From Armatimonadota bacterium (GTDB lineage Bacteria; Armatimonadota; UBA5829; DTJY01), in contig OY760504.1 of NCBI GenBank assembly GCA_963663705.1, forward strand, positions 2,632,063 to 2,696,062: a DNA stretch of 64,000 nucleotides. Reading direction: 5' to 3'. The position numbers and the translations under genes are program-made. The notes below the pieces were generated by a model, which worked only from the letters and a program-made list of their open reading frames with translations, was not told where the DNA came from and did no database searches. This document shows positions 13,018 through 61,878 of this stretch, in pieces (the stretch's first letter is position 1; every line of letters starts with the position of its first letter).

Positions 13018-13382
13018 ATTTCTCCTCTGAATGTTTGTTCGAGCCAAATACTGGTGTAACCTTTGGATACACTCAACTGAAACCCTGACGCCGGCCAGTT
13101 TGCCGTTTATCAGTCCATTTCTATATAGCAAGTTAGCAAGGCGGTATGACATTTATCAACAATCAGCGCCTCCAAGGACAGCACATTTTATGACAGTATC
13201 AATTTCTTGTTGATGCTCTCCAGCCACCGTCAGTTGAACTTCATCCAGACAGTATGCAAGATTTCGCCTTTTGGCTCCATCGGTGACATGCCGTCATTGC
13301 ACATGTATAATTCTCCTCGAACACATATTACTTTCGGTTTAGAAGTAGCGACCGCCTAAAACGATTTTTTGCAACAAAATTC

Positions 13383-35000: not shown

Positions 35001-35077
35001 TGGCAGGCAGGACTTTGACTAATCCGGTTGCAGACATCTTCGCACGCAGATTGAGTCGTTTAGCCTTGGCAAAGTAA
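32003..35077 (+). CDS. Glycoside hydrolase family 2 protein (beta-galactosidase, beta-mannosidase or beta-glucuronidase-like).
   Basis: GH2 N-terminal sugar-binding domain YYRTTFELNAEMISGGALFVCFGGVDYKADVFMNNTHLGSHEGFFAPFESDFT. TIM-barrel region GREIRLRGANTMGFEQQDVM. TTG start at 32003 with GGAGA upstream. Confidence 0.75.
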   Translation: MSNTDSSNKKDIFAQIGAEGMEPAASEISEPQPPELPGIFLRADTLDPGAVFKPLPKLDTHPKLMAELNRQKRAYAKFLRNLAPEPVQTRKRIMLESFSRRLQNPEDLKDFSSTLNGAGDWESVRIPDFGGPLGRATLYYRTTFELNAEMISGGALFVCFGGVDYKADVFMNNTHLGSHEGFFAPFESDFTRVARDGQNTLVVVVENDAVCMSNDSWGTDGDKYEGDKIYAATGPGYDEPEVGWHHCPPGMGIYQDVYVEARSSIYVHDIFVRPLPESSRAEVWVEVNSCHTIRQEIGLELSVYGQNFRRTVLRGKKFESVGQAGPGINYYKQIFEIPDARLWELDEPWLYQAQVKVLDSGGGLLDAASRQFGMRSFTMDETGTPKGRLSLNGREIRLRGANTMGFEQQDVMRKDWDQLIDDILLAKICHMNFWRLTQRPVQPEVYDYCDKLGLMTQTDLPLFGVLRRTQFAEAVRQSDEMEHLVRAHPCNIMVTYINEPIPNAWDKPHRHLPRPELERFFVAASAVVKVMNPDRVIKPVDGDYDPPAPGLPDNHCYNGWYNGHGLDLGKLHKGYWQRVKPDWMYGCGEFGAEGLDYADLMRRRYPQHWLPGSHCQEKDWSPSSIPLAQTGRFHYMWFDTRHSMQDWADASQAHQAWVTRIMTEAFRRDNRMVSFAIHLFIDAFPSGWMKTIMDVERHPKPAYFEYREALTPLMACLRSDRYAFFAGENICFEGWVCNDLCTVPANLRLHYQFELDGKVMFAKKTDANVPVCASEFQGYLSIPAPNVETRTSGTIRLALVKGDGTVLHDSQSQIEIFPSTKTGKMPRFYILGAKDGVATKLTEELGHEGGLAAVFSGKIRSSDTILIDDYTLFAEKREVVLAAVESGATAVFLELPEGKYDIAGDEIRVEGCGMGPRHFVSRDTGHPLVAGFAPNDFRFWFDQDAGYVTPLFAAEFVADGWKAILTSGSGGWASLDWKPTLAAAEKPHGNGMLRLCQVKLAGRTLTNPVADIFARRLSRLALAK

Positions 35078-36834: not shown

Positions 36835-36978
36835 AAATTGTGTCCGGCAACTAGAGCTGCGTCGGTTGAATGAAGTCGCCGCCTCTAAAAAAGCTTCTGT
36901 CTGTAGCTATGTGGGAAAAGCTCGTTGAGTAGTGCAAAACCTTCTCACATATATATATAATAATGGAAAGGATTGAAA

Positions 36979-39300
36979 ATGAACGCACACAAGCAGAGTC
37001 GCCCCTGGGAGATATATCTTGTTCATCACAGTCATGTGGATATCGGCTATACCGACCCACAACCGATAGCAATGAGGAAACAGGCTGACTTCATAGCTCA
37101 GGCATTGGATTACTGCACGGCAACGGATCATCTCCCTAGCGGCGAACGTTTTGTCTGGACTTGCGAAGTATCATGGACTGTTAAGGCTTTCTTGAAACGG
37201 TATCCTGAACGCGCCGAAGAGTTCTTCCGCCGTGTCCGAGAGGGACGCATTGAAGTTACCGGCATCTACCTCAACCTGACTGATCTTTTTGATGAAGACC
37301 TGCTGAAACATTCTATATCGTATGCGCATGATCTGGCGGATGATCATGGCTTCAGCGTTGAAACCGCCATGCAGAGCGATGTAAATGGCTGGGCGTGGGG
37401 ATTGCCGAAAATGTTGTCGGAGCAGGGGATACGATACTTCGACATTGGGATCAACCAAACCCGATCCTTGGTATTTAGCCCAAGACCTCGGCCTTTTTAT
37501 TGGGTCTCTCCTGGCGGAGAGCGCGTGCTGCTGTGGCATGGCGAAAGCTACATGCATGGGAATAACTTTTTGATCGATCCGGCTGACGGAATAGGCAAGG
37601 TAAGAGAATACCTTAAATCACTTGAAACGTCCGGTTATCCGCATTCTGCGGTAGCCATGCGAGTTCACGGCGCGACGCGCGACAACGCTCCTCCCGCTCT
37701 GTGGCTTTGTGATTTCGTGCGAGAGTGGAACGCCCATCAGGATTACCCCAAACTCCGACTCTGCACATCGCGAGAATGGTTCCAGCATCTGGAATCCTCC
37801 TGGCCGGAGCCGATCGAGGAGCTGCAAAAAGCATGGCCGGACTGGTGGACGGATGGCATAGGTTCAGCCGCGTATGAATCTGCCCTGGTGCGTACGGCAG
37901 AGGCAAACCTGAAATCCGCAAAGGCGATAGAGGCTTCAGGCGGGCGACTGGATCAAGAGACTCTCTCTGATGCTCAAGAGTCATCAATGTTCTTTGCTGA
38001 ACATACCTGGGGAGCCTGGTGCAGCACTGACTCGCCGGATTCTCTGGAAAGCAAGGCCGGATGGAACGTCAAATCAGGCTTTGCATATACGGCGGCAGTG
38101 GAATCCTCTGCGTTGGTTTACGATGCATTGCGTACATACGCTGGTGAGGCCAAAACAGAGCCTGCCGTGCTGGTATTCAACCCTCTGCCTCATACCCGAA
38201 CCGATATAGCTGAAATTTCGATCCCAAACGCCGCCATAACAGGGCATAGCGAGCAGGTGCTCAGTAAAGAGATAGAGGAAAGCTGCCCACCTTTGCATCT
38301 TGTCGACCTGGAATCGGGGACAAAGATTCCGGTGTCTCGACGGCCTGTGATCCTGGGTAGCGACCGTATGCCGGGCCAGATAATCCGGTTTGTCGCAAAT
38401 GACGTGCCGGGGTCGGGCAGCCGCAGATATGGTATTGTCCCGGGAGCGCTGGAAATGGAGGCGGCATCTGTTTGCAGTGGCTCTACAATTCAAAACGCCT
38501 TCTTCAAAGTCGAGGTAGACCCTGTTACCGGTGGCATCAGGAGCCTGTACGACAAGCGGCTTGGGCGCGAGTTGGTAGCATGCGGGGAATATACGCTGAA
38601 TCAGCTTATCCATGAAACGGTCGACTCGCCGGAAGGGCGCGAGGCGTTGAGTACCTGGGCCGAATTGCGAAAAGATACGCCATTTATCAGGCAGACCGAG
38701 GAGATGAGTCTGGAAGTTGGCCCGGTGATGCCTTTTGGAGCATCTCTAATTGTAGAAGGGAAAGGCAAATTCCATAGTGTAAAGAACTCAATCACCCTCT
38801 ACGATAATCTGCCCAGGATCGATATACAAAACTGCATATGCAGATTACCATCCGAATACACAGAGTCATTCTATCAGGCTTTCCCTATTGGGAAAAGTGG
38901 ATGCACGGTATATCTGGATACGCCAGGCGCGGTCATGCGGCCGGGGATAGATCAACTGCCCGAGACTGCAACCGACTGGCATGGCTTGCAGAACTATTTT
39001 GCAGCATCGGATGGGAGTAACACTACAACCGTAGCGTCACCGGATATCCCGATAGTGCAGGTGAATGGTATAAATACAGGGAAGTGGCAGAAGACTTTGC
39101 CTGCGCATAATGGCCTTGTAATGTCCTGGGTAATGAACAACTACTGGTTCACAAATTTCCCGGCGACTCAAAGGGGTGAACTCTCATACCGGTATAGCAT
39201 AAGCAGTTATGCAGGCGGATTTGATCCTGAAGCATCAAGTGGTTTCGCCTCTTCAATCCGCCAACCGCTAGCCTGTATCTTAATATCTCACCGTCCATAG
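36979..39300 (+). CDS. Glycoside hydrolase family 38 alpha-mannosidase-like protein.
   Basis: N-terminal GH38 motif EIYLVHHSHVDIGYT (HxHxDxGW/Y type). 775 aa. RBS AAAGGA sits 8 nt upstream of ATG 36979. Confidence 0.7.
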   Translation: MNAHKQSRPWEIYLVHHSHVDIGYTDPQPIAMRKQADFIAQALDYCTATDHLPSGERFVWTCEVSWTVKAFLKRYPERAEEFFRRVREGRIEVTGIYLNLTDLFDEDLLKHSISYAHDLADDHGFSVETAMQSDVNGWAWGLPKMLSEQGIRYFDIGINQTRSLVFSPRPRPFYWVSPGGERVLLWHGESYMHGNNFLIDPADGIGKVREYLKSLETSGYPHSAVAMRVHGATRDNAPPALWLCDFVREWNAHQDYPKLRLCTSREWFQHLESSWPEPIEELQKAWPDWWTDGIGSAAYESALVRTAEANLKSAKAIEASGGRLDQETLSDAQESSMFFAEHTWGAWCSTDSPDSLESKAGWNVKSGFAYTAAVESSALVYDALRTYAGEAKTEPAVLVFNPLPHTRTDIAEISIPNAAITGHSEQVLSKEIEESCPPLHLVDLESGTKIPVSRRPVILGSDRMPGQIIRFVANDVPGSGSRRYGIVPGALEMEAASVCSGSTIQNAFFKVEVDPVTGGIRSLYDKRLGRELVACGEYTLNQLIHETVDSPEGREALSTWAELRKDTPFIRQTEEMSLEVGPVMPFGASLIVEGKGKFHSVKNSITLYDNLPRIDIQNCICRLPSEYTESFYQAFPIGKSGCTVYLDTPGAVMRPGIDQLPETATDWHGLQNYFAASDGSNTTTVASPDIPIVQVNGINTGKWQKTLPAHNGLVMSWVMNNYWFTNFPATQRGELSYRYSISSYAGGFDPEASSGFASSIRQPLACILISHRP

Positions 39301-43190: not shown

Positions 43191-45329
43191 GTGCAATTTA
43201 ATCCTGACATGTACGATGTGGTTTGGACTGAACCCAGCCTCGACAGTTCAGGTTCAATGCCGCTTGGGAATGGTGATACAGGCTTGAATCTCTGGGTCGA
43301 ACCCAATGGCGACATCGTTTTCTATATATCCAAGACTGACTCGTGGAGTGAAACAGGCAGGCTTCTTAAGCTTGCTCGTGTGAGGATTTCATTCACGCCT
43401 GCGATACCAATCGGGGCTGGATTCGTGCAGGCTCTTCATCTTGGACAGGGTGAGATAGAGATCCGATCCGGCAGCTTGGATCAACTTGACGTCATACGGA
43501 TTTGGGTGGATGCCAATCACCCCGTGATATGTGTCGAAGCCGAGCTGAGCCGGGCCGCGTCCGTGAATGTGAGCCTTGAAAACTGGCGAGACAAGGAGCG
43601 CGTGCTCGAGGGTAAAGAACTCGAGAGCGCTTACGGTCTGGTGGATGCACCTTTTCCAGTGGTTGAATGCGCCGATGTCATATCAAACGATAATAACTCA
43701 ATTACCTGGTATCACAGAAACCCGACTTCCATTGTGCCTCTCACCCTTAGCCTTCAAGGATTGAATTCGATATCGGATACAGTGGATGATCCGTTGCTTA
43801 ACCGAACGTTTGGCGGCATGATAACCGGCGCGGGAATGCAGCGCAGCGGAACGCATTCGTTGAGAAGCGCAAACCCTGCATGCGAGCATCTTATTCAGAT
43901 TCACATATTGACGGATCAGACTCCTGCAAGTTCGGAGTGGCTCCATAGGCTGTGTGTTCGTGCTCAAGATATCGGGGCGATCCCGATATCGACCCGCCGG
44001 AAAAATCACCGGCAGTGGTGGGATGAATTCTGGAATCGCAGTTACATCGTAGTTCATGGCGATGTTGATGCGGAAACCGTTTCACGCGGTTATGCGCTGC
44101 AGCGGTTTATGAATGCCTGCGCTGGTCGAGGGGCTTATCCCATCAAGTTCAACGGAAGCATCTTTACGGTAGATGCCAGAGAGCCAAACGAAGAGTTCAA
44201 CGCCGACTATCGTCGCTGGGGTGGAGCGTACTGGTTCCAAAACACAAGGCTGATCTATTGGCCGATGCTCGCATCCGGCGATTTCGATCTTATGTTACCT
44301 CTATTTGCAATGTACAGAAAAATGCTGCCCTTTGCCCTTGCTCGCACAAGTGTTTATTTTGGCCATGAAGGAGCATTTTTTCCTGAGACACTATACCCTT
44401 GGGGAGCCTATGTCAACGATAATTACGGTTGGAATCGCGAAGGCAAGGATGCATCGCATGTAAACAATACGTACATTCGCTACTACTGGCAGGGCGGGAT
44501 TGAATTGGTGGCAATGATGCTTGCATATTACGATTACACTCAGGAGCAGGCATTTCTTGAAACCACACTACTGCCAATCGCTGAGGCCGTTATCGACTTC
44601 TACATGCAACATTATGGAAGGGATGACCACGGTAAAATTGTCATGAACCCGGCATCCTCTCTTGAAACATGGCAGGACGTAATCAATCCGGCTCCGGATA
44701 TCGCAGGATTGCAGTGGATAATAGATGGATTGTTGAGATTACCTCACGAGGTTGTCATGGAAAACAGGCGTGCCAAATTGAATCGTATCATGGCTGAACT
44801 TCCCGAGATACCAAGCGGCAGCTCGGACGGCGAAAGATATCTTACTGCGGCAGAGCAGATATTGGGACCTTCGATGAACAGCGAGAATCCCGAACTCTAT
44901 GCAGTATTCCCATACCGGTTATTCGGTGTATCCAGCCATAATGATGTCGGCGTTCTGACATTCAGAAAACGCCTGAACAGCACCAACGCAGGGTGGACAC
45001 AAGACCCGATACAAGCGGCCTGCCTTGGGCTTGCCCATGAAGCGAAAACGATGGTAGTCGATCGTTTTGCATCGAAGCATGCAGGCAGCAGGTTTCCAGC
45101 ATTCTGGGGGCCTAACTTCGACTGGATACCGGATCAGGACCACTGTTCAGTGGCAGCTACAGCACTGCAGTGTATGCTTTTTGATACATCCAAAGAAGAG
45201 GTAGTCCCGCTTCCTACCTGGCCGAAAGAATGGAATGTAGACTTCAAATTGCATGCGTGTGGAGGCATTGTTGTCGAAGGAAGCTATGTGGATGGGGAAC
45301 TTTCTCTTTCCAAGTATCGTGAGGAGTAA
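43191..45329 (+). CDS. Putative glycoside hydrolase, GH95-like N-terminal domain (DUF5703-type) with a helical barrel.
   Basis: N-terminal PLGNGDTGLNLWVEPNGDIVFYISKTDSWSE resembles the GH95 PIGNGRLGAMVFG...LNEDTLWSG motif. GTG start with RBS AGGAG. Confidence 0.4.
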   Translation: MQFNPDMYDVVWTEPSLDSSGSMPLGNGDTGLNLWVEPNGDIVFYISKTDSWSETGRLLKLARVRISFTPAIPIGAGFVQALHLGQGEIEIRSGSLDQLDVIRIWVDANHPVICVEAELSRAASVNVSLENWRDKERVLEGKELESAYGLVDAPFPVVECADVISNDNNSITWYHRNPTSIVPLTLSLQGLNSISDTVDDPLLNRTFGGMITGAGMQRSGTHSLRSANPACEHLIQIHILTDQTPASSEWLHRLCVRAQDIGAIPISTRRKNHRQWWDEFWNRSYIVVHGDVDAETVSRGYALQRFMNACAGRGAYPIKFNGSIFTVDAREPNEEFNADYRRWGGAYWFQNTRLIYWPMLASGDFDLMLPLFAMYRKMLPFALARTSVYFGHEGAFFPETLYPWGAYVNDNYGWNREGKDASHVNNTYIRYYWQGGIELVAMMLAYYDYTQEQAFLETTLLPIAEAVIDFYMQHYGRDDHGKIVMNPASSLETWQDVINPAPDIAGLQWIIDGLLRLPHEVVMENRRAKLNRIMAELPEIPSGSSDGERYLTAAEQILGPSMNSENPELYAVFPYRLFGVSSHNDVGVLTFRKRLNSTNAGWTQDPIQAACLGLAHEAKTMVVDRFASKHAGSRFPAFWGPNFDWIPDQDHCSVAATALQCMLFDTSKEEVVPLPTWPKEWNVDFKLHACGGIVVEGSYVDGELSLSKYREE

Positions 45330-45334
45330 TTTAA

Positions 45335-45931
45335 TCAGATGGCGGAATTTGAATGATCGCAGATAAAACTAAATGTCTCAACGGTTGGTGGGATTTCATT
45401 CCGGTTTAGCGAGCTTTTATCCAACCTTCCGCCGTGACGTGAGACGAAGAGATAATTATGTCTACATTCGGGCCGGAGTTCCATCCAGTCCTTAATCGCA
45501 TCGTATGCACTGGAGTTAAGAGGAATAAGTCGCATCTTATTTCCCTTCCCCTTCGTCACCTGCATTACGCTATTTTCCAAATCTATGTCTTCCAGCTTGA
45601 GATCGAGCAGTTCCTGCCTGCGGACACCGGTATGTATGAGCACTGACATAATCGCTCTGTTACGGAATGCCTGGTTGATAGATCTGCCCTGCTCGGAAGC
45701 GGAGATCAGAGCTTCCATCTCTACGGTGGTAAGACAAATGGGTACTTTGTATTCCTTCTTTGGTGTAGGGATTCGTCGAAGTGGAGAACGGTCGATATAC
45801 TCCGCATCCACAAGGTAATTCCACATGGATTTCAGGCTGTTAACCTTTCGGCGTATATAGGCCGACTTATAGTCGCTCCCATTCAAGTATGCCAGGTATT
45901 GCCGGATAACGGGAGTGGTGATGGATTCCAT
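45335..45931 (-). pseudogene. Truncated tyrosine recombinase (phage-integrase / XerD-like) lacking the N-terminal ~50 aa and the C-terminal catalytic H-x-x-R...Y region.
   Basis: Core-binding domain VIRQYLAYL...SLKSMWNYL. Catalytic-domain start RAIMSVLIHTGVRRQELLDLKLEDIDLENSVMQVTKGKGNKMRLIPL. Ends in non-homologous sequence before the HxxR and Tyr. Confidence 0.6.
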
Positions 45932-46155
45932 TTCATGCGGAATGCCCCGCTCACCCAGGGCTTATGTGCCTACTCCAAGACCATTTTGCCAACATAATTC
46001 TGTCTGGCCGAGACATAACCCGTTACATAATGTGAAAAAGCGTGGGGTTATGTCTCGGTGAGCAAAAATATTCAGCTACGACAGAACCCCCTGTTATTTT
46101 CCACTGACATCCCACATGATCGATGGCCTAATTCTAGTTTTAGGAGATAGGCACT

Positions 46156-46281
46156 ATGTTATTAACACCATTGGCCGAAGAGTTTTATGCCTACTTGAAG
46201 AATGAACGAGGATCAAGCGAACTGACTATCAGTTCATACAAGTATGATTTTCGCCGATTCTTGAGGTTATATTGGGACTAA
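46156..46281 (+). pseudogene. Isolated N-terminal 41-aa fragment of a tyrosine recombinase, on the strand opposite to the larger fragment.
   Basis: MLLTPLAEEFYAYLKNERGSSELTISSYKYDFRRFLRLYWD* matches the XerD N-terminus (LxxFLxxLxxERgLSxNTLxAYRRDL). RBS AGGAGATAG. Its stop lies inside the direct repeat at 46265. Confidence 0.5.
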
Positions 46282-46990
46282 CCCGACGTTTTTGTTGCGT
46301 ATTACTTTGTGTTGTAGGTACATAACCGTGTAGAATATCAAGTTTGACCCTGGTTGGCAGGACTTGGGCGTGAGTATGATGGCATACATAACAGTCCCAT
46401 GCAAGCATCTTGACCCAGGGCTTTTACATATTAACGGCTTGTAGCAAATTCGTCTAATGATATTATATCTATCACGAGGAAATAATACTACACATATCAA
46501 ACACCACATAAAACCGGTGAGGAGTCTGATATGGAAGAATACGAAAACCTGATTGCACACTTGAAGCTAATCCCTGACATGAGGGCCGAGAGATGCAAGA
46601 AGCACAAACTCATAGATGTGCTGTTCATCGCTTTGTGAACTATTCGTTCAGATGGCGAGGATTCAGTGATATTATCGACTTTGCAACGCGTCGAGAGAAT
46701 GGTTGCGAAAGTATATTGAGCTCCCTTGTGGCATACCATAGTATTACACCTTACGAAGGGTATTTCAAATACTCGATCCAAAGGCCCTTAAGGAAGGATT
46801 GATGAGTTGGATGGAGAGCCTGAGGAGTGCAACTTCGGGGCAAGTGATAGCTCTGGATGTTACGATGAACGAGGATATGAATCGAATCCGAAAAGATAAC
46901 GCCCCGGAGAATCTGGCGGTTATAAGAAGAATAGCCGTAAGTATGGTAAATCAGGGTCGGCCATAGATAACTGTAAACATAATGCAAAAG
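46265..46990 (+). mobile_element. Degenerate ISAs1-family IS remnant: left-end repeat, transposase N-terminus (frameshifted) and C-terminal tail. The DDE core is deleted.
   Basis: 46530-46640 encodes MEEYENLIAHLKLIPDMRAERCKKHKLIDVLFIAL*, an ISAs1 Tnp N-terminus. The next frame continues NYSFRWRGFSDIIDF. 46803-46970 encodes ...VTMNEDMNRIRKDNAPENLAVIRRIAVSMVNQ, an ISAs1 Tnp C-terminus. Confidence 0.55.
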
Positions 46991-47077
46991 CACTGATTTC
47001 CTCTTGACTGGATACCGGCTTTGATGTAAAATGACTAAACGTGATTGATATTTTGAGTAAACGTGAGTTAAAATCCG

Positions 47078-47867: not shown

Positions 47868-49289
47868 GTGAAATCGATCTTACTCGGATTGGATATCGGC
47901 ACTACCAAGCTGTGTGCGGTTGCCGTAGAGTCGGAGACCGGCAGACTTGTTGCTGTGGAATCTGCTCCCAATGACGCACACATACCGACAGAGGCTGGCG
48001 GGGCCGAACAAGACCCTGCCGTAGTCATGATGCGCATTCAGGAGGTGGCGCGACGCCTTAGCACACGACCGGAGCTCGATGGGTACTCCATCGACGGTCT
48101 TGGTGTCACAGGGCAGATGCACGGCGTGCTCCTGATAGATGCGGATGGCAGTCCGGTTTCCCCTCTGGTCTCCTGGCAGGATCAGCGTGGTCATCGCAAA
48201 TCCACCAGGTGCGGCCGTACATATGTCGAGGAACTCCGCGAGCGGATTCAAACCGAGGATACAGGATGCGAACCGTCGACAGGTTACGGCGCCGTCACAC
48301 TCCTCCGCCTCAAAGACGAAGACCTGATACCGGCGAACTCCCGTGCGCTTACCATTCATGATTTCGTCGTGATGCAGCTTTGTGATGTAGCCGCCACTGA
48401 TCCGACCGATGCCGCGAGTTGGGGGATTTTCGATGTGCGCGACGGCCAACGGTGGCTGCCATCAGCGTTAGTAAGTTTTCCCTTCATGAGGGATCTACTG
48501 CCAAGCGTTCTCGGTACGGGCACTGTCGCGGGAAGGATAAGTTCGAGTGCAGCACGAGTGACAGGATTTCCTCACGGCTTGCCGGTCGCCGTCGCGTTGG
48601 GAGACAACCAGGCATCGTTTTTGGGGAGTGTTCCTTCCGCCCACGAGTCGCTGCTCCTGAATCTGGGGACGGGCGGGCAGATATCCGTGCCTATCGATCG
48701 GTTTGCTTCACTTCCTTTACTGGAGACACGACCATTACTGCCGGGACTCTGGCTGCTCGTCGGCGCTAGTCTCTGCGGGGGGCGGGCATACCAGATTCTC
48801 GCAGACTTCTTTGCCGATGTCGGACGTGAACTCTTCGGCTGCGATGTCGGCGATGCACTATACGAGCGGATGAACGTGCTTGCGGATGAGGCTACAGAGG
48901 ACTGCGATCACCTGTGCGCCCATACGCTATTTGAGGGTACCCGCAAAGACCCAACCATCCGGGGTGACTTCATCGGCATCAGTTCGCAGAATTTCACTCC
49001 TGCCAATCTGACACGCGCCTGCATTGCAGGCATGGTCGATGAACTGGTCTCCATGTATGCGCAGGCGGAGGATGCCGGAGCGAATATCGGCACCGTCGTC
49101 GGAGCAGGGAATGCTATTCGACGCAATCCCATAGTCCGTTATGAGATTGAGAGACGGCTTTCGATGCCATTGTACCTCTCGTCACGTACCGAGGAGGCTG
49201 CGGTTGGAGCGGCTCTGGTCGGCGGAGTGGCTGCCGGAGTCTATTCTGACTGGCGGATGGCTGTGTCTCACTCGGCCGCAAAAGAATGA
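47868..49289 (+). CDS. FGGY-family carbohydrate kinase, a divergent xylulokinase-like member.
   Basis: GTG start 10 nt after AGGAGA. ILLGLDIGTTKLCAVAVE and GVTGQMHGVLLID motifs. C-terminal GAGNAIRRN. Confidence 0.7.
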   Translation: MKSILLGLDIGTTKLCAVAVESETGRLVAVESAPNDAHIPTEAGGAEQDPAVVMMRIQEVARRLSTRPELDGYSIDGLGVTGQMHGVLLIDADGSPVSPLVSWQDQRGHRKSTRCGRTYVEELRERIQTEDTGCEPSTGYGAVTLLRLKDEDLIPANSRALTIHDFVVMQLCDVAATDPTDAASWGIFDVRDGQRWLPSALVSFPFMRDLLPSVLGTGTVAGRISSSAARVTGFPHGLPVAVALGDNQASFLGSVPSAHESLLLNLGTGGQISVPIDRFASLPLLETRPLLPGLWLLVGASLCGGRAYQILADFFADVGRELFGCDVGDALYERMNVLADEATEDCDHLCAHTLFEGTRKDPTIRGDFIGISSQNFTPANLTRACIAGMVDELVSMYAQAEDAGANIGTVVGAGNAIRRNPIVRYEIERRLSMPLYLSSRTEEAAVGAALVGGVAAGVYSDWRMAVSHSAAKE

Positions 49290-49319: not shown

Positions 49320-51758
49320 ATGGTTCGCATCGTTGAGAAAACCGTGGGATTTGACCCAAAACGCCTGGCACAGCAGTTACTCTCTGTGCAGTCGCAGAAT
49401 CAACACACTACACGCCTGGATGGCTGGTTCCTTACTATGGAGATTCGCATGCGGGCGCTCGCGGTGTTGCGCAAGACCGCTACCGATTTGCCGAACATCA
49501 TAGTGCAGGCCAGGCTTTTTGCGGCAGTCTGTGAGCAACTACCTCTCACCATCCGAGACGATGAAGTCTTTGCCGGAACGCAGGACGATGCCTTTGCTCG
49601 TACCTATGCGTTGATCAACCCCGAGTTCAAAGTCGAAACCTTCGCAGGATACTGCGACCCGATGGCGGTCTACGGCGACATCACTTGCGCACCTGAGCTC
49701 GGTTTCACGGCCGAACGTATCAAGGCGGTCCGCGACTTTTGGGCTATGGAGCCGTTTGCCAGTGTACTCAAGGCAGCCTACGCAGAGACTGGTGATGAGT
49801 TGTCTGAGGTTGCATACTTTGTCGAGCAGGTTACCGGTCACACAATCTGCGATTTCCGTCCGGCTCTCCAGAACGGACTGGTGCCGCTCATCGAGGAAGC
49901 GCAGTCCAGAGCCCGGGAAACCAGCGGAAGCCAGAAGGATTTCTATACGGCCGCGGAGATCTCACTCACGGCTGTGCTTGCGCTGGGTGACCGCTATGCG
50001 AGGTTGGCCGCAGATATGGCGAGCGGTGAGACCGATCCGCTCCGCAAACATGAACTCAAACGAATTGCCGAGACATGTGGAAGAGTGCTGCATTCCGGCG
50101 CGAGTTCGCTCTACGATGCCATCCAGGCATTCATGCTTCTGTGGATGGGAATGACCCTCGAACAAGCACCAAATCCCTATGCGTTCAGCGTCGGAAACCT
50201 CGATCGGATTCTGCAGCCCTACTTCGCACAGGACGCAATCGATCGGGAAGTCGCCATCGAACTGACACGCCATTTGCTCGCACTCTTTAACGTCGGAGAC
50301 CGAAACTGGGCGATCAGCCAGAACATCATGGTCGGCGGTCGTGACGAGAACGGCAAAGACCTGACCTGCGATATGACCACCATCGTGCTCGCGGCATTCT
50401 ATCGCAGCAACTACCCGCAGCCGGCACTCTCGGTAAAACTCCATTCGCGAACTCCCGATGAGGTCTATTCCGCACTCGCACCGTTTTTCACCACGCCGGG
50501 GAGTCTGACACCGAGCTTCTTCAATGACGACGTGCTCTTCCCTATTCTTACGAAGAAAGGAATCGCCCGCGAAGACCTGCCTCTGTATTCCATCGCCGGA
50601 TGCCAGGAGCCGTTGATCATGGGCAAGGAATCGGGAAACACTACCAATAGCTGGCTGAATCTTGGGAAGATCCTGGAACTGACCATCCACGGCGGCAAGA
50701 GCGCTATCACGGGGAGGCGGATCGGCCTATCATACGAAGAACTCGGTCTGAATCCCGATGAGCCCGTCAAAGATATGGAGCAGGTCAAGACGGCGTTCTG
50801 GAAGCAGTTGGACCATATGCTGCCGAGAATGGAAAAGGCTGCCAATGCGTGCACTAAGGCGCTCTCTCTCCTCCCGGTGCCGTTCCTCTCGTGCTTCATG
50901 GGAGGGTTTGAGAGCGGTATCGATATGCGGGATAACACCGCTCAGGGGACGAAGTATAATGCATCCGGATGCCTAATTCACGGACTGAGCGTAGTCGCGG
51001 ATAGTCTGTCTGCTATTGCCCATCTTCAGGGAACCGCGCCCGATCAGTTGGCAGATCTACCGAGGGCACTGCTCGCCAAATTCGAGGGATTTGACGCACT
51101 GCGCTCGCGTTGTCTTGCAGCACCCAAGTATGGGAACCGTCTGGGGCTGCCGGAGAAGCTAGCCGCGGAGATCGCCGAGGGAACGTCGAGCCGGGTGACG
51201 GCGTTGACTAACCCTTGGGGAAACCATTTTCTCCCTGACTGGAGCACTCCCAGCACACATTTGCTGTATGGTTACTGGGTCGGCGCTACTCCGGATGGGA
51301 GAATGGCAAGACAGATGCTTGGATACGGCATCGACCCCACGGCAGGTATGGCTACACACGGACTTCCTCCACGTATACTCAGCATGCATGCGCTGCCCTA
51401 CGAGGCATTCCTCGGAGGTTATGCCAGCCACATCGGGTTGGAACCGGCTATGGTCCGAGCCGCCGAAGATGGCAAGGGTTTCGTCGATACAATTCGCGGC
51501 TGCGTCATCGATCCGCTCTTCGGGTTCAACGGCGAGGGTATGAATGGTGGGTATTACGTCTACTTCAACGTCGACTCTGCGGAGCATCTCAGAAAGATAC
51601 TGGCGAACCCGATGGAACTCGTGCCCAGCGGAATCTACATTATGCGCATACACGGGACTTTCGTGAACTTCCTCGATCTCTCACCGGCGATCCAGGAAGA
51701 TATAATCACTCGGCTCGATGAGGAATCGACCAGCTTTTCAAAGACTTGCTTTGCATGA
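49320..51758 (+). CDS. Glycyl radical enzyme (pyruvate formate-lyase fold), eliminase/dehydratase-type, with non-canonical motifs.
   Basis: GRE hallmarks ATPDGRMARQMLGYGIDPTAGMATHG and NASGCLIHGLSVVADSL. Active-site loop SIAGCQEPLIMGKE (Cys428). C-terminal glycyl-radical segment IYIMRIHGTFVNFLDLSPAIQEDIITR aligns to [26 protein letters not shown] (Gly779). Confidence 0.8.
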   Translation: MVRIVEKTVGFDPKRLAQQLLSVQSQNQHTTRLDGWFLTMEIRMRALAVLRKTATDLPNIIVQARLFAAVCEQLPLTIRDDEVFAGTQDDAFARTYALINPEFKVETFAGYCDPMAVYGDITCAPELGFTAERIKAVRDFWAMEPFASVLKAAYAETGDELSEVAYFVEQVTGHTICDFRPALQNGLVPLIEEAQSRARETSGSQKDFYTAAEISLTAVLALGDRYARLAADMASGETDPLRKHELKRIAETCGRVLHSGASSLYDAIQAFMLLWMGMTLEQAPNPYAFSVGNLDRILQPYFAQDAIDREVAIELTRHLLALFNVGDRNWAISQNIMVGGRDENGKDLTCDMTTIVLAAFYRSNYPQPALSVKLHSRTPDEVYSALAPFFTTPGSLTPSFFNDDVLFPILTKKGIAREDLPLYSIAGCQEPLIMGKESGNTTNSWLNLGKILELTIHGGKSAITGRRIGLSYEELGLNPDEPVKDMEQVKTAFWKQLDHMLPRMEKAANACTKALSLLPVPFLSCFMGGFESGIDMRDNTAQGTKYNASGCLIHGLSVVADSLSAIAHLQGTAPDQLADLPRALLAKFEGFDALRSRCLAAPKYGNRLGLPEKLAAEIAEGTSSRVTALTNPWGNHFLPDWSTPSTHLLYGYWVGATPDGRMARQMLGYGIDPTAGMATHGLPPRILSMHALPYEAFLGGYASHIGLEPAMVRAAEDGKGFVDTIRGCVIDPLFGFNGEGMNGGYYVYFNVDSAEHLRKILANPMELVPSGIYIMRIHGTFVNFLDLSPAIQEDIITRLDEESTSFSKTCFA

Positions 51759-52648
51759 GTGACATCGCTGTTACCATATTCGATATAGGTTTCACCTATA
51801 ACATCGACGGCCCGGGACAACGGATGGTCGTGTACTTCAAGGGCTGCAATCTCCGCTGTCCCTGGTGCGCGTCGCCGGAGTCTATCGCTGCCGCTTCGGA
51901 AGTCCTGCTGTATCCTGACCGCGCACCCTCTCAGGTATCGCTGATCGACGCCTGTCCCTACGGTGCAGTGAGCGCGATAGGCGGAGAAGTATTGCGTGAT
52001 ACGGACAGATGCCGATTATGCGAACTGCATCCGTGTACCGATTCCGGCACACCTGCCTTTGAGCTGTGCGGCCGAACGGTTTCGGTGAGTGAGATTATCA
52101 GTCAAGCCGAGGAGTACCGGCCATTCTTTGGAAGCAATGGGGGAATAACGATCGGTGGAGGGGAGTCGACCTGTCAGTTTCAGGCTCTCGAAGGGATTCT
52201 GGCTGAACTCCACAAACGCTCTATCGATACGGCTTTGGAGACAAACGGAACACATCTCAGGTTGCCGGAGATTTTCCCACTGCTGGACATGCTGCTGATC
52301 GATCTCAAGCATCCCTTATCCGAGCAGTGCAGAGAGATAGTCGGTCTCGGAAACGAGGTAACTCTGGCCAATATCGCCGCCAGGTGGAAACACGGTGGCG
52401 ATATGGTGGTACGCATACCTCTTGTTCCTGGATACAATTCTGATGAGGCCGTTCTCTACGAATTCGGTAAGGTCCTGGCATCGATTGGGCCGTTGTGCGT
52501 TGAGATATTGCCTTTTCACCGACGAGGGGAAATAAAGTGGCGGTCACTTGGGCTTAGAATGCCTGCCGAATCAGCGAAGGAACCCTCCCGGCATTTGCTA
52601 GGCCAGGCTTATGATATTCTACAGAGTTATGGATTACATGTGAAATGA
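51755..52648 (+). CDS. Glycyl-radical-enzyme activating enzyme (radical SAM).
   Basis: CxxxCxxC motif GCNLRCPWC. SAM-binding GGITIGGGES. Cys-rich insert CPYGAVSA...CRLCELHPC. Its ATG overlaps the GRE stop as ATGA, indicating translational coupling. Confidence 0.8.
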   Translation: MSDIAVTIFDIGFTYNIDGPGQRMVVYFKGCNLRCPWCASPESIAAASEVLLYPDRAPSQVSLIDACPYGAVSAIGGEVLRDTDRCRLCELHPCTDSGTPAFELCGRTVSVSEIISQAEEYRPFFGSNGGITIGGGESTCQFQALEGILAELHKRSIDTALETNGTHLRLPEIFPLLDMLLIDLKHPLSEQCREIVGLGNEVTLANIAARWKHGGDMVVRIPLVPGYNSDEAVLYEFGKVLASIGPLCVEILPFHRRGEIKWRSLGLRMPAESAKEPSRHLLGQAYDILQSYGLHVK

Positions 52649-53610: not shown

Positions 53611-54726
53611 CTATATCACTTCGAGGTAGTCTCTGTCCGGTAGCACCGGGAACGCACCGTGTGGCTCGGACTGATACCAGTATGCGACGGACGATATATC
53701 ATCCCGCAAAGGGAGATACCGGCCTTCACTATGCCAGCCCAGACCTTGTACTGTCAGTTTCAGGTCTTGCTTGAAGCGGATCGGATCCATGATGTGGAAG
53801 CGATACATGAGGTGACGATCGCCGGCTTTCCCAAATGATGTTCCTACAGGATAACCCAGGAACGGGGCCGAGAAGTTTTCGCCGAAGCCCCACGCACCGC
53901 CGATGTAGTCCTCTGTGCCGGTTGCGACGATTGTTGGAAACTCCCCGTCACCATCCAGGAAGAACTTGGTCTCTCCTTCACCCCACCAGCCGTTGTTGTT
54001 CTGCTGCCAGGCGAGGGATGTGCCGACGTAGTGCCCCTGGCCGTGCACACCATCGAGGATGGTATAGACTTCCTTGTAAGGGAGCGGGTTTGTACGTCGG
54101 AACTGAGCGTGAAAACGAGCATCCTCGTCTGTCACCTCAGTTATGGCGTAGGTGATGTTGTACACGATCTCCTCGTCCTTTACGGGATTTCTGTTTTCGA
54201 TGGTTATACGGGCGTGCTTGCCGAAAGGCATGGGGAAATAACAGTTCATTGCTCTGGTAGGATTGACATTTATGGGCAACGACAGGATGGGAGTTTGTAT
54301 TCCAAGGCCGTTACAGAAGAAGTCGGCTATGGGAGATTCGACACTGGGAGTCTCTTCGTTATCCCAGTACATACGCAGTATCAGGTCGCGCATAAACACC
54401 GGCTCCTGACTAAACGTGAGGAAGAGGTGCTGAATGCAGCCGGGACCGTCTACGTCCATTATTGTGGTGGTTGTTCCGGCAGGGAATATTGGGTGTATGC
54501 GAACCTTCCACCCGCGTCCCAAATCACGAGCCGCGTGTTCAGCAATATCCTTATCCGTGAACCATGTCTGCCCTATACGCTCAACATCGGGTGGCGGCGT
54601 TGTCGTAATTTCCGCCATGCATGCGCGTCCCTTCTCTCCGTATACGTTCTCGGCGTTGATCGATCGTGTCTCCGCGTTGGAGAGTCGAAATATGTTACCC
54701 AACCCCATTCCCATTCCTGAAAACAT
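53611..54726 (-). CDS. DUF2961 / GH172-like protein, a putative glycoside hydrolase.
   Basis: Motifs RMYWDNEETPSVESPIADFFCNG, YFPMPF and GEGETKFFLDGDGEFPTIVATGTEDYIGGAWGF resemble the DUF2961 family. Recalled from memory, not searched. Confidence 0.4.
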   Translation of the reverse strand: MFSGMGMGLGNIFRLSNAETRSINAENVYGEKGRACMAEITTTPPPDVERIGQTWFTDKDIAEHAARDLGRGWKVRIHPIFPAGTTTTIMDVDGPGCIQHLFLTFSQEPVFMRDLILRMYWDNEETPSVESPIADFFCNGLGIQTPILSLPINVNPTRAMNCYFPMPFGKHARITIENRNPVKDEEIVYNITYAITEVTDEDARFHAQFRRTNPLPYKEVYTILDGVHGQGHYVGTSLAWQQNNNGWWGEGETKFFLDGDGEFPTIVATGTEDYIGGAWGFGENFSAPFLGYPVGTSFGKAGDRHLMYRFHIMDPIRFKQDLKLTVQGLGWHSEGRYLPLRDDISSVAYWYQSEPHGAFPVLPDRDYLEVI

Positions 54727-56534: not shown

Positions 56535-57866
56535 ATGATTAACATCCGATCGAGCAGGCGGTGGCACCTGAGACTATGCGTATTGGTTGCAACCTGCTTG
56601 GGGCTTTTGCTCTTTACCAGTGGATGTTCTAGGCCTCCGAAAGAAGCTAAGAATACGGTTCATTTGCGCTTCAGCGTCCTTGGCTGCAAGCAGGAATCAG
56701 ACTTGGCGGAGGCTTTTGCCAGGGGGTTTGAGAGAACTCATCCCAATATTAAAATAGATATAGAACCGGTGGCTGGGATGAGCTATGATATGAAGCTTAT
56801 CATGCAATCGGCTGCTGGGACTGTTGCGGACGTTCTCTTTCTTTCTGACTCGCTTGTCCCGGAGTTTTCGAAATTCCATGTCGTCCGCGATCTTTCCCAG
56901 GATATAAAAAGAGACAAAACCTTTGACATCAACAGCATATATCCGCAGATGATGGTTACCGGAATGGATGATCAACGTCATGTTTATATGATTCCCAGGG
57001 AACTGAGTGTTGTTTCGCTTTTCTATAACCGCACACTGTTTAAGCGGGCGCATGTTCCCTGCCCAAATGAAAACTGGACCTATGAGGACTTCACCAAAGC
57101 TGCCAAAAAGCTAACTATCAAGGATGCGGACGGGCATATCAAACAGTATGGTTTTTTCGGATCTTACGCCTGGCCACAGATTTACGTCTCTTGGATTGAA
57201 GCCAATGGTGGACACGCAATGACAAACGGCAAGTCTACCTTGTCTTCTCCGGAATCGATGAAGGCATTGAACTCGCTTCTGGACATGGTGTGCAAAGATA
57301 AGTGTGCAATGTCTCCCAATACTGCCCGAGCGAATCCGCAGATAGACCCGTTTGTGGGCGGACAGGCCGCAATGACAGCGCAGGTCTTTTCGCAGGTTCC
57401 GCAATTCCGCACCACTATGAAGCAATTCGACTGGGATGTGGAGATGATGCCTATTGGGACCGTCAGCCGTGTGATAAGCATCGGTTCGGCCGGCTATGGG
57501 ATTTATGCCAGGACTAAGCATCCGAAAGAGGCTTGGGAGTTTCTCAAGTATATTGAGAGCAAGCAAGGGCAGAGGTTACTGGGCAACGCCGGGAGCGGAA
57601 CCCCCGCTGTCAAATCCCTGGCGTATGACAAATGCTGGCGCAAACCGGGTCTTCCGCCCAAAAATCTGGACGCTTTTATCAAGGGCGTCAAATATGGAAT
57701 CCAGTGGAATAAGATTAGTCCGTTTTCTTCGCCGGAGATATCCGACAGTGTCGCGGAAGCTTTTGAAAAAGTCTTTGTCGGCATGGAGTCGCCGGAACAG
57801 GCTTTTAAGAAAGCTGATGAGAAGATAAATATCCTTCTAGCCAAGGAGCGTGCTGGTGATGATTAA
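56535..57866 (+). CDS. ABC transporter substrate-binding lipoprotein (carbohydrate, family-1 solute-binding protein).
   Basis: Lipoprotein signal LLLFTSGCS. SBP_bac_1-like sequence throughout. Confidence 0.8.
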   Translation: MINIRSSRRWHLRLCVLVATCLGLLLFTSGCSRPPKEAKNTVHLRFSVLGCKQESDLAEAFARGFERTHPNIKIDIEPVAGMSYDMKLIMQSAAGTVADVLFLSDSLVPEFSKFHVVRDLSQDIKRDKTFDINSIYPQMMVTGMDDQRHVYMIPRELSVVSLFYNRTLFKRAHVPCPNENWTYEDFTKAAKKLTIKDADGHIKQYGFFGSYAWPQIYVSWIEANGGHAMTNGKSTLSSPESMKALNSLLDMVCKDKCAMSPNTARANPQIDPFVGGQAAMTAQVFSQVPQFRTTMKQFDWDVEMMPIGTVSRVISIGSAGYGIYARTKHPKEAWEFLKYIESKQGQRLLGNAGSGTPAVKSLAYDKCWRKPGLPPKNLDAFIKGVKYGIQWNKISPFSSPEISDSVAEAFEKVFVGMESPEQAFKKADEKINILLAKERAGDD

Positions 57867-59610: not shown

Positions 59611-59700
59611 TTCCATTTGGCCTATCCCGGTTCTCCGGACACCTGCTTAAGATGTGTGCACGCATTAACCTTTATTCCATACCTGAAAGGCGACAATAAC

Positions 59701-61878
59701 ATGATCTGGAATACCGTAAGAACTACCGCCATCCTCTTGGCATCAATCTGCTTAGTCTCCGCTGCAAAGGCAGCCGATGCAGGTGATTTGAAAAACGGCT
59801 TCTTCCGTCTTTGCACATCTGATAACGGACACATCACATCCCTTCAGGTCGACCCAAACGGTAAAGGCAATTACAGCCGCAGCTTTCTTACCAGCATGGG
59901 ATTCGATTATTCCGCCACGCAATCAACCAGCATAAGCGCATCTCGAAACAGCATTGAAGTATCCGGTCTGACCACCAAAGGAGGTAAATCAGCCACAGTC
60001 AGCATATTCCTGAAGGGTCCCGACTTGCTGATATCAGCTACCACACCTAAAGGCGAAGAGGCAGCTCCATTAGGTGCAGACATCTATTGGAACAACTCCG
60101 GATATGACATTTCGTCCAAATCCACTCCTTTCTCTCGATTTTTCACAGACATCCAATTTTACATGGACGCCAGACAGCTCAAACGCTGGAGAGACAACAA
60201 CGGATGGTATGATCATCCTATAATTGGAAAGAACTGGATAGAATTAGAAGGAACCGGCAATTGGGACATGAGGCTGTCCTCAGATAACCCAACCCTAACC
60301 TGGCATATTGAAGAAAACAAAAACACACTGATATTCAACTCAAGCCCCCAAGTCAGCTCGGATATGAGCAAAACGCTCTTCAAATTCACAGCCCAAAAAA
60401 GGGCAGATAGAATTCCTGCCGACTGGCCTAAATTCGTGCTTCCCAACAAGAAGGCCGGGGAAGAAGCTACGACTCTTTTTTACGAGAGAGCATTCTCATA
60501 CCAGCCGGTATGGGGAAACGCAGCTTGGGCTGAGTGGATGGCTATCGGCGAAGTATGGCATGCCGGGCCACGGCTGAAAGCATTGAAAGACTACCTGTCG
60601 AAATATCCTATGAGCGACGAAGGATATGTAAACACATGGGGTGACCACGCCGGTTGGCCTTTTCCTGATAACAGCAAATATGATACTCGTCATTTCGACA
60701 CCAATGCACGCTTCATTCTGGCCTGCTTCCGATATGCAGCCTGGACGGGAGATACTGATTTCCTGAGAAATCAGGCGCAAAGACTCCGTAAAGCAATGAA
60801 TTATCAACTTACGACTCTCCATGGAGAAGATGGCCTTATCATCGCGGCAGGCAAAGACAGCACCGGACGTCATAAAGCCCTTGGAAACAACTACTGGGAC
60901 GTCCTCCCCTTCGGGCATCTGGACGCCTATGCCAACATAGTATGGTATGCTTCCTGTGAAGCGATGGCGCAGATTGAGGATACTCTGGCTTCATCCGGGG
61001 GAATCAAAACACCAGGAAAAATACATTCGCCGGAGTTTTACCGAAGTCTGGCAGAAAAAGTCCGTAAAACATACAACGACACATTCTGGGACGACCGGGC
61101 CGGACGCTATATCGGCTGTATAGATATAGACGGGATAAAGCACGATTATGGATTCACATTCATCAATCTGGAGGCAATTGCATACGGGCTGACAAGTGAA
61201 GATAAAGCCAAAAGAATTTATCACTGGTTGGAGACCGAACCAACCAGCACCGGCAAAGCTGACACATACAGCACTTTTGTTTTTGCGCCGCGAGCCAACA
61301 CTATACACGACCCTATGTGGGAGGACAATACTGGTAAAAAGGAAGATTGCCCCGAAGATCCGTGGTGGCATTTCGGATGGCACGGAACCCCTTACGGAAT
61401 ACAGTGTGAGGACGGAGGCGGTATCTTCTACCTCAGCTACTTCGACCTGATGGCACGCCTCCGCTTTATGGGGATAGATAACGCCCAAAAACGTTGGCAG
61501 GAGATAATGGACCGCTGGCGGCTTCCAGATCACATTTGCGGTGGGGCGCCGCTTGTAACCGGAGAAACTCCTCAGCAGTTCAGTCCAGGAATGACGGGAA
61601 CGGATATCCCATTCCCTGAAAGCGGATTGGTTCCATGCTGGCTGGTATACGGAGTATTGGGAGCCTCGGCAGACACGCGCGGGCTAAGCATACATCCAAA
61701 CCTACCGACAGGCATTCCCTGGATCGAAATCGACAACATGAAATTCCACGGAATCCAGTTCAATATCAGAGCAACCCGCAAAGATGTGACAATCAAATGC
61801 ACACAACCCGGGCATAAGTTCAATATCACAAAGAAACTGGACGCAAACGGTTCTGTGACATTCGAGTCATTGAGATAA
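59701..61878 (+). CDS. Secreted hypothetical protein, possible (alpha/alpha)6-barrel glycosidase-like.
   Basis: Signal peptide MIWNTVRTTAILLASICLVSAAKA from the ATG at 59701. No confident family. Confidence 0.5.
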   Translation: MIWNTVRTTAILLASICLVSAAKAADAGDLKNGFFRLCTSDNGHITSLQVDPNGKGNYSRSFLTSMGFDYSATQSTSISASRNSIEVSGLTTKGGKSATVSIFLKGPDLLISATTPKGEEAAPLGADIYWNNSGYDISSKSTPFSRFFTDIQFYMDARQLKRWRDNNGWYDHPIIGKNWIELEGTGNWDMRLSSDNPTLTWHIEENKNTLIFNSSPQVSSDMSKTLFKFTAQKRADRIPADWPKFVLPNKKAGEEATTLFYERAFSYQPVWGNAAWAEWMAIGEVWHAGPRLKALKDYLSKYPMSDEGYVNTWGDHAGWPFPDNSKYDTRHFDTNARFILACFRYAAWTGDTDFLRNQAQRLRKAMNYQLTTLHGEDGLIIAAGKDSTGRHKALGNNYWDVLPFGHLDAYANIVWYASCEAMAQIEDTLASSGGIKTPGKIHSPEFYRSLAEKVRKTYNDTFWDDRAGRYIGCIDIDGIKHDYGFTFINLEAIAYGLTSEDKAKRIYHWLETEPTSTGKADTYSTFVFAPRANTIHDPMWEDNTGKKEDCPEDPWWHFGWHGTPYGIQCEDGGGIFYLSYFDLMARLRFMGIDNAQKRWQEIMDRWRLPDHICGGAPLVTGETPQQFSPGMTGTDIPFPESGLVPCWLVYGVLGASADTRGLSIHPNLPTGIPWIEIDNMKFHGIQFNIRATRKDVTIKCTQPGHKFNITKKLDANGSVTFESLR

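Follow-up and report, generated by a model that had tools for sequence, protein, structure and literature searches.

A widespread, sugar-kinase-linked clade of glycyl radical enzymes with variant glycine and cysteine loops (RIHGT/GCQEP)

Among described glycyl radical enzymes (GREs), the best sequence and fold matches to the protein considered here are the glycerol dehydratase of Clostridium butyricum (1R8W) and the GRE 1,2-propanediol dehydratases (9RCO/9RCP, 5I2G). The protein is a GRE of 812 residues, encoded in a 64,000-nucleotide stretch of the genome of an Armatimonadota bacterium (contig OY760504.1; this whole stretch is referred to as the window), and it carries RIHGTF and GCQEP at the loops of the radical glycine and the catalytic cysteine, where the dehydratases carry RVAGYS and GCVEP. 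The dehydratase matches have E-values of 8e-66 and 8e-60 and a template modelling (TM) score of 0.82, but an identity of only 25%. Both kinds of enzyme have the catalytic Cys, the Glu of the CXE motif, the equivalent of dehydratase His164, and an adjoining dedicated activase. In the window GRE, however, the pocket has other residues, one loop is missing, and the partner is a sugar kinase rather than the microcompartment or 1,3-propanediol genes that accompany the dehydratases. CXE is the motif recognised in the literature at the Cys loop (review); in glycerol dehydratase its Glu deprotonates the carbinol hydroxyl while His164 protonates the leaving oxygen, and these two residues are regarded as hallmarks of the eliminase and isomerase classes (review).

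The only characterised GREs acting on sugars are YbiW and PflD, 1,5-anhydrohexitol-6-phosphate C-O lyases that serve as the GRE isomerases of 'anhydroglycolysis'. They also keep the CXE motif and the His, and they sit in sugar-uptake and phosphorylation operons. However, they are weaker matches to the window GRE (E 1e-37 to 3e-49), and YbiW, which is 25% identical to it, has the canonical loops GCIE and RVAGYS. Their substrates are phosphorylated by the phosphotransferase system (PTS), and the fructose 6-phosphate aldolase gene fsaA lies beside ybiW, whereas the window clade has an adjacent FGGY kinase, with or without a phosphomannose isomerase (PMI)-like protein, and no conserved aldolase. 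A recently described departure from the GRE fingerprint is that of the aminoacyl radical enzymes (AAREs), mined from metagenome-assembled genomes (MAGs), many of them from gut (2024 AARE paper). In AAREs the radical glycine is replaced by Ala, Ser or Thr between canonical flanks (RVATY, RVAAY), whereas the clade described here keeps the glycine and changes the flanks. The window GRE is assigned to none of these groups because their defining features are absent from it: it falls below the TIGR01774 cutoff for diol dehydratases and lacks their NGHSIS pocket, keeping only His164; it lacks close sequence similarity to YbiW/PflD, and its related loci have no conserved PTS genes or aldolase; and Gly779 is present, and is kept in 120 of 120 homologues.

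In this study, we find that the odd loop residues are a conserved clade signature, the product of neither error nor decay. The sequence of the radical domain and of the activase is unusual and the clade is widespread; the fold is ordinary, as the mechanism probably is too, and the enzyme would work in the manner of the GRE eliminases and isomerases. We consider it likely that the protein is a working GRE of a large, uncharacterised clade marked by these residues, acting as a C-O eliminase or isomerase on a carbohydrate.

The variant loops and their conservation

The codons at 51645-51659 read CGC ATA CAC GGG ACT and encode R776, I777, H778, G779 and T780, with F781 following at 51660-51662, and the codon of Cys428 (50601-50603) stands in the context A-G-C-Q-E-P. 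In phmmer alignments to 1r8w, 9rco and 5i2a, RIHGTF pairs with RVAGYS and GCQEP with GCVEP, and Cys428 falls on Cys433 of 1r8w. On these alignments to solved dehydratases, Gly779 and Cys428 are securely identified as homologues of the radical glycine and the thiyl cysteine. The loops had first been picked out in a reading of the bare sequence (hereafter the original prediction), whose coordinates and residues proved exact and whose alignment to the GRE consensus holds. Relative to the customary GRE fingerprint, RVxG[FWY]x6-8[FL]x4Qx2[IV]x2R, the window GRE differs at two positions, having Ile for Val at -2 from the glycine and Thr for the aromatic residue at +1. His778 occupies the free 'x' position, and the distal half of the fingerprint is intact (L787, Q792, I795 and R798).

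The remainder of the protein is that of an ordinary GRE. The Pfam PFL-like domain (PF02901; PFL, pyruvate formate lyase), a ten-stranded barrel, covers residues 38-651 (E 2e-110). The AlphaFold2 (AF2) model has a predicted local distance difference test score (pLDDT) of 84.5 and a predicted TM score of 0.90, and Foldseek places it on the 1,2-propanediol and glycerol dehydratases with a TM score of 0.82 and a probability of 1.00 at 25% identity. The CXE motif of the GRE 1,2-eliminases and isomerases is present as C428-Q-E430, and no second Cys of the kind seen in PFL was found in the GRE sequence. Residues 644-676 (window 51249-51347), comprising the PSTHLLYGYWVGATPDGR segment and the loop that follows, are modelled at pLDDT below 50; the PSTHLLYGYWVGATPDGR segment is nonetheless highly conserved in sequence across the clade.

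A homologue search covering 5.8 billion proteins was used to survey the nearest 120 homologues. One of them (P0001) is an identical protein that comes from an independent contig of 3.78 Mb, and the other 119 have identities of 50-75%. RIHG occurs in all 120, the Gly loop being RIHGTF in 117, RIHGTY in one and RIHGQY in two, and GCQEP occurs in 119; Gly779 is retained throughout. In a 43-sequence alignment, G779, C428, Q429, E430, H778, R776, I777 and H174 are invariant, and H174 is also invariant in a second alignment that takes in YbiW and the sister clades. The check that the original prediction had proposed thus comes out positive, as the RIHGT/GCQEP clade that it asked about in metagenomes does exist and is large.

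The closest carriers are Armatimonadota, at about 70% identity. Carried by anaerobes of the gut and of the environment, the clade spans several phyla, Bacillota included, and its carriers are chiefly gut and rumen Clostridia (Acutalibacteraceae, Oscillospiraceae, Lachnospiraceae, Christensenella tenuis), many of the relatives coming from Clostridia of the human, mouse and ruminant gut. Others are found in Sumerlaeota, Verrucomicrobiota, Lentisphaerae/Victivallis, Spirochaetes, Anaerolineae and Bacteroidota. Carriers in culture include Christensenella tenuis NSJ-35 and Sunxiuqinia sp. A32. An exhaustive search of 50%-identity representatives showed the clade to be sharply bounded at scores of at least 692 bits. 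The next sequences down are a small number of relatives that share 29-39% identity, followed by ordinary GREs with identities near 30%. Across species-representative genomes, a scan confirmed 583 relatives, sister clades counted in; the best 80 of these 583 were fetched as loci, each from a different species-level genome and at least 49% identical to the query, and the neighbourhood counts given below were taken over 78 related loci.

The His/Gln superclade, the activase and the sugar kinase

The original prediction described the residues on both sides of the radical glycine, Ser and Tyr, as near-invariant. For the aromatic residue this is correct, as position +1 is Tyr, Phe or Trp in 112 of 123 GRE representatives, but Ser at -1 was wrongly included, because that position is variable (Ala 59, Ser 30, His 10, Thr 9, Gly 5 among the 123). 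Similarly, Gln429 does lie on the Val of the dehydratases, as had been stated, but no more than 73 of 125 representatives have Val directly after the Cys. What the original prediction did not contain is the strict coupling of the two substitutions: His at -1 and Gln after the Cys stand together in 10 of 10 representatives and in 0 of the 113 others, and among the 43 closest matches of a search seeded with a sister sequence, at least 41 combined GCQE with RVHG or RIHG. Because the His/Gln sequences form one monophyletic group in a neighbour-joining tree, the pair is an old signature, of single origin, of a superclade whose members are mutually 29-47% identical. It is older than the window clade, so that of the residues flagged originally only the Thr at +1 (rarely Gln) is clade-specific; with it go Ile at -2 and an aromatic residue at +2.

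The sister clades (e.g., P0136, P0288 and P0278 from Moorella naiadis) are 29-39% identical to the window protein and likewise uncharacterised. They share with it the His at -1, the Gln after the Cys, an 11-residue loop deletion common to the superclade, and a sugar-kinase neighbourhood, and most of their sequences also have NPYAFS for NGHSIS. Their Gly loops read RVHG[YF]S or RVHGM[SN], with Tyr, Phe or Met rather than Thr at +1, and they score 54-102 bits with the Pfam Gly_radical model, compared with 17.5 for the window clade. All members of the superclade fall short of the cutoff of every NCBIfam model. In another GRE lineage (P0197 and P0241), RISGLS is combined with GCYE. Together with the RVHGM[SN] sisters, which have Met at +1, this lineage indicates that the aromatic residue was lost more than once.

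Two further groups of sequences came to light in the same survey. P0133, a superclade member 34% identical to the window protein, has GDELP for GCQEP, a Gly loop reading RVPGAI and no Gly_radical match, and it appears to be a truly degenerate, Cys-less paralogue. Among the distant matches were AARE-type sequences (P0183, P0186, P0247, P0334, P0347, P0355, P0372, P0381 and P0383) with the loops RVAAY, RVSTY, RVATW and RVATY, in which Ala or Thr replaces the radical Gly.

The activase of the window clade is altered in parallel, which is a second addition to the original prediction. Its ATG (51755) overlaps the stop codon of the GRE gene, TGA (51756-51758), as ATGA, in agreement with the translational coupling noted originally, and it encodes a radical S-adenosylmethionine (SAM) protein with the CX3CX2C motif. 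In 66 of the 78 loci an activase gene is found no further than three genes from that of the GRE. The retention of Gly, Cys and Glu beside this conserved activase supports the original suggestion that the enzyme is probably still activated. The residue after the third Cys of the motif is Ser in 42, Ala in 22, Thr in one and His in one of 66 clade activases, whereas both sister-clade activases examined keep His there (CHN) together with eight auxiliary Cys, the number that is the norm for most GRE activases (review). The reduced insert of the window activase has four, which 34 of 44 aligned clade activases share; the insert is absent from the others. Since the sequence of the Gly loop is thought to set activase specificity, it is a reasonable reading that loop and activase changed jointly.

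The conserved metabolic partner, also new relative to the original prediction, is an FGGY-family sugar kinase: in 63 of the 78 loci it is encoded on the strand of the GRE gene and no more than three genes away from it. A class I phosphomannose-isomerase-like cupin occupies a corresponding position in 27, and the typical operon order is activase, GRE, FGGY kinase, PMI-like protein. Sister clades adjoin FGGY kinases, or PfkB kinases and PMI. The FGGY kinase of the window has XylB as its best NCBIfam match, at 147 bits against a 380-bit cutoff, and its best matches in the PDB have E-values of 1e-19. Conserved PTS genes or a conserved aldolase were not found in the related loci, nor were small subunits like those of the decarboxylases and X-succinate synthases found in the operons. 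GntR or LacI regulators lie within the same three-gene range in 17 of the 78 loci, and ROK regulators were also seen; the DeoR regulator that heads the operon here accompanies the GRE in only four related loci, although the Moorella sister-clade locus also has DeoR regulators. Occasional neighbours include GH32 fructosidases, a GH38 mannosidase, GH130 proteins (GH, glycoside hydrolase family), sugar transporters, and mannitol-dehydrogenase-family and Zn-dependent dehydrogenases, and in three loci RhaA and a class II aldolase follow the operon. Two loci have expanded arrangements. In a Dorea sp. MAG, two clade GRE/activase pairs lie close together (GRE, activase, Zn-dehydrogenase, activase, GRE), and in a Blautia sp. 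MAG three FGGY kinase genes and then an L-rhamnose isomerase gene follow the GRE.

The probable reaction and its alternatives

In the mechanism that we propose, the coupled downstream activase would use SAM to abstract a hydrogen from Gly779, the radical would move from Gly779 to Cys428, and the resulting thiyl radical would take a hydrogen from the carbinol carbon of a carbohydrate substrate. Glu430 would deprotonate the carbinol hydroxyl and His174 would protonate the neighbouring leaving oxygen, the net reaction being a 1,2-elimination of water or an ether opening, as in glycerol dehydratase and YbiW/PflD. The FGGY kinase would probably phosphorylate either the substrate or the deoxy-carbonyl product, which could then enter central metabolism, and in many genomes the mannose-6-phosphate-isomerase-like protein may also take part. 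His778 and Gln429, at the tips of the two finger loops, represent the ancient coupled pair of the kinase-linked superclade, whereas Thr780, Phe781 and Ile777 are a later, clade-confined change coincident with the altered activase. The proposal draws on two residues, the CXE Glu and the counterpart of His164, both of which are invariant in the clade and present in the sugar C-O lyase YbiW.

Several observations weigh against this mechanism or parts of it. Five positions of glycerol dehydratase are replaced in the alignment to 1r8w (H281Y/F, S282A, Y339S, D447T and Y640S, in 1R8W numbering); these are presumably residues of the dehydratase pocket, and the chemistry here could therefore differ. 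The same replacements, several of them to smaller residues, would fit a larger substrate. The Gly_radical score of the window GRE is below the gathering score of 22.2 bits, and all NCBIfam GRE models fall far below their cutoffs (TIGR01774, 273 bits against 678; PRK09983, 187 against 1109). A phosphomannose isomerase is hard to place after an eliminase, since the products of eliminases are deoxy-carbonyl compounds. Finally, the His/Gln coupling arose once, with no independent sign of physical contact.

The neighbouring genes have fructose, mannose, mannitol and anhydro-sugar themes (GH32, GH38, GH130, GH172/DUF2961, the mannitol dehydrogenase family and PMI), and no single compound fits them all. 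Conversion of a pentitol to 2-deoxyribose or of a hexitol to 1-deoxyfructose, unphosphorylated 1,5-anhydrohexitols, and difructose anhydrides were each considered as substrates and were not told apart.

A more ambitious reading, which we put forward tentatively and as a whole, is that the superclade might constitute a new functional class of GREs acting on free, unphosphorylated sugars, polyols, or anhydro- or keto-glycosides. This class would have a His-Gln bridge from the Gly loop to the Cys loop that tunes how the radical is stored and transferred. The RIHGT clade would, in addition, have rebuilt its contact with the activase, as the +1 aromatic residue, the His after CX3CX2C and half of the ferredoxin domain are lost.

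It is also conceivable, but unlikely, that the protein is an active GRE with chemistry other than C-O elimination or isomerisation, for instance breakage of the C-N or C-S bond in an amino or sulfo sugar, a radical attack that splits a glycosidic or ketal bond, or a C-C cleavage that stands in for the aldolase step following an isomerase and a kinase. The five changed pocket positions and the deleted 11-residue loop would be in keeping with such an enzyme. Moreover, the trio of isomerase, FGGY kinase and GRE resembles the isomerase/kinase/aldolase logic of the fucose and rhamnose pathways, in line with the three loci where RhaA and a class II aldolase follow the operon, and neighbours of the GH32, GH172 (DUF2961) and beta-helix types are suggestive of fructosides or of compounds related to anhydro-fructose. 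However, the invariant CXE Glu and His164 equivalent are eliminase and isomerase hallmarks, there is no second Cys as in PFL, and the operons have no small subunits of the decarboxylase or X-succinate-synthase type, all of which argues against such chemistry.

A separate question is whether His778 and Gln429 play a direct part in radical chemistry or catalysis instead of being packing or specificity residues. They could form a hydrogen-bonded bridge between the Gly and Cys loops that tunes hydrogen transfer or radical lifetime, or His778 could be an additional acid or base. The two residues are strictly coupled and kept across a superclade of low mutual identity, and both lie in hairpin turns of the AF2 secondary structure (E774-777/E780-783 and E423-426/E430-433), hairpins that meet at the active site in all GREs (review), so a contact between them is plausible on the model. 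In addition, the strongest covariation of either position, 429 or 778, is with position 442 of the pocket, which corresponds to D447 of glycerol dehydratase. On the other hand, with a single monophyletic group in the tree, the coupling counts as one event, and independent origins of the pair were looked for there and rejected. In a mutual-information scan, 778 is the sixth-ranked partner of 429, but it is no longer among the top partners once the His/Gln clade is removed, so that mutual information gives no independent support for direct contact. Steric compensation between the residue after the Cys and that before the Gly was likewise rejected across other GREs, the side-chain volumes having a Spearman rho of 0.03. 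Taken by themselves, the two behave as specificity-linked positions, and we regard a direct catalytic role as doubtful.

It is very improbable that the protein is a degenerate, non-radical paralogue with a binding or regulatory role, a reading that the original prediction had allowed. It could call on the sub-threshold Gly_radical match and on P0133, a superclade relative that did lose its Cys, but none of Gly, Cys, Glu and His varies in hundreds of sequences, the dedicated activase is kept and translationally coupled, and the distal [FL]x4Qx2[IV]x2R is intact. Sequencing or assembly error in the variant codons, raised at the same time, has practically no chance of being correct and was refuted by the homologue survey, given the identical protein from an independent contig, the same RIHG residues in all 120 nearest homologues, and the three separate codons that would have to change to turn RVSGY into RIHGT.

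The operon in its genome and the significance of the clade

The DeoR-FGGY-GRE genes have a G+C content of 56-59%, compared with 51% for the window, which suggests that the operon was horizontally acquired. Directly upstream, a spacer of 42.7% G+C (45335-47077) contains remnants of mobile elements: a truncated XerC/D-type tyrosine recombinase of 198 residues that covers only part of its model, a 41-residue Phage_int_SAM_1 fragment (46156-46281) and a 35-residue DDE_Tnp_1_assoc transposase fragment (46531-46638). The window as a whole is a glycan-degradation region dense in glycoside hydrolases (Table 1), and the operon is closely followed by the DUF2961 (GH172) gene and a sugar ABC system.

Table 1. 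Positions in the window of the GRE, its operon and the surrounding genes
Feature	Position	Strand	Evidence
DeoR-family transcriptional regulator, first gene of the operon in this genome	47078..47857	+	Pfam HTH_DeoR and DeoRC
FGGY-family sugar kinase, conserved metabolic partner	47868..49289	+	Pfam FGGY_N and FGGY_C
GRE of the RIHGT/GCQEP clade, 812 aa	49320..51758	+	Pfam PFL-like (E 2e-110), AF2, Foldseek
His174, counterpart of glycerol dehydratase His164 (proposed proton donor to the leaving oxygen)	49839..49841	+	Alignment
Pocket segment N285-P-Y-A-F-S290, in place of diol dehydratase N-G-H-S-I-S	50172..50189	+	Alignments
Cys loop G427-C428-Q429-E430-P431 (thiyl radical Cys; Gln for Val; CXE Glu)	50598..50612	+	
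Gly loop and glycyl radical fingerprint R776-I-H-G779-T-F...L787...Q792...I795...R798	51645..51713	+	
Cognate radical-SAM activase	51755..52648	+	TIGR02494, 199.8 bits (cutoff 174.35)
Activase D18-G-P-G-Q-R23 and C31-X3-C35-X2-C38, then Ala39 (His37 in the PFL activase, PFL-AE)	51806..51871	+	Alignment to 3c8f
Reduced auxiliary-cluster insert of the activase: C67, C86, C89 and C94 only	51953..52036	+	Alignment
GH116-like proteins	10478-13072; 59617-61875		
GH20	17094-18998		
GH123	27537-29987		
GH2	32003-35074		
GH38	36973-39297		
DUF5703/GH95-like protein	43191-45329		
DUF2961 (GH172), just downstream of the operon	53611-54726		
Sugar ABC binding protein	56535-57866		
GH78 rhamnosidase	62036 to window end		

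No curated family or solved structure covering the clade was found, and no GRE with such loops or such a genetic neighbourhood is described in the literature consulted, including the 2026 superfamily review and the 2024 AARE paper. Mining for GREs usually relies on the RVxG[FWY] motif or the Pfam glycyl radical domain, and because both of these miss the clade, its members carry no annotation beyond 'pyruvate formate lyase family protein'.

The clade is a natural experiment on the radical domain. It bears on which residues of the Gly loop are required by the activase, on whether the conserved aromatic residue after the radical glycine is dispensable, and on what the residues flanking the Gly/Cys pair contribute. 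Beyond the enzyme itself, the clade's constant association with a sugar kinase points to a route of anaerobic carbohydrate metabolism that has gone unrecognised, alongside that of the 'anhydroglycolysis' enzymes.

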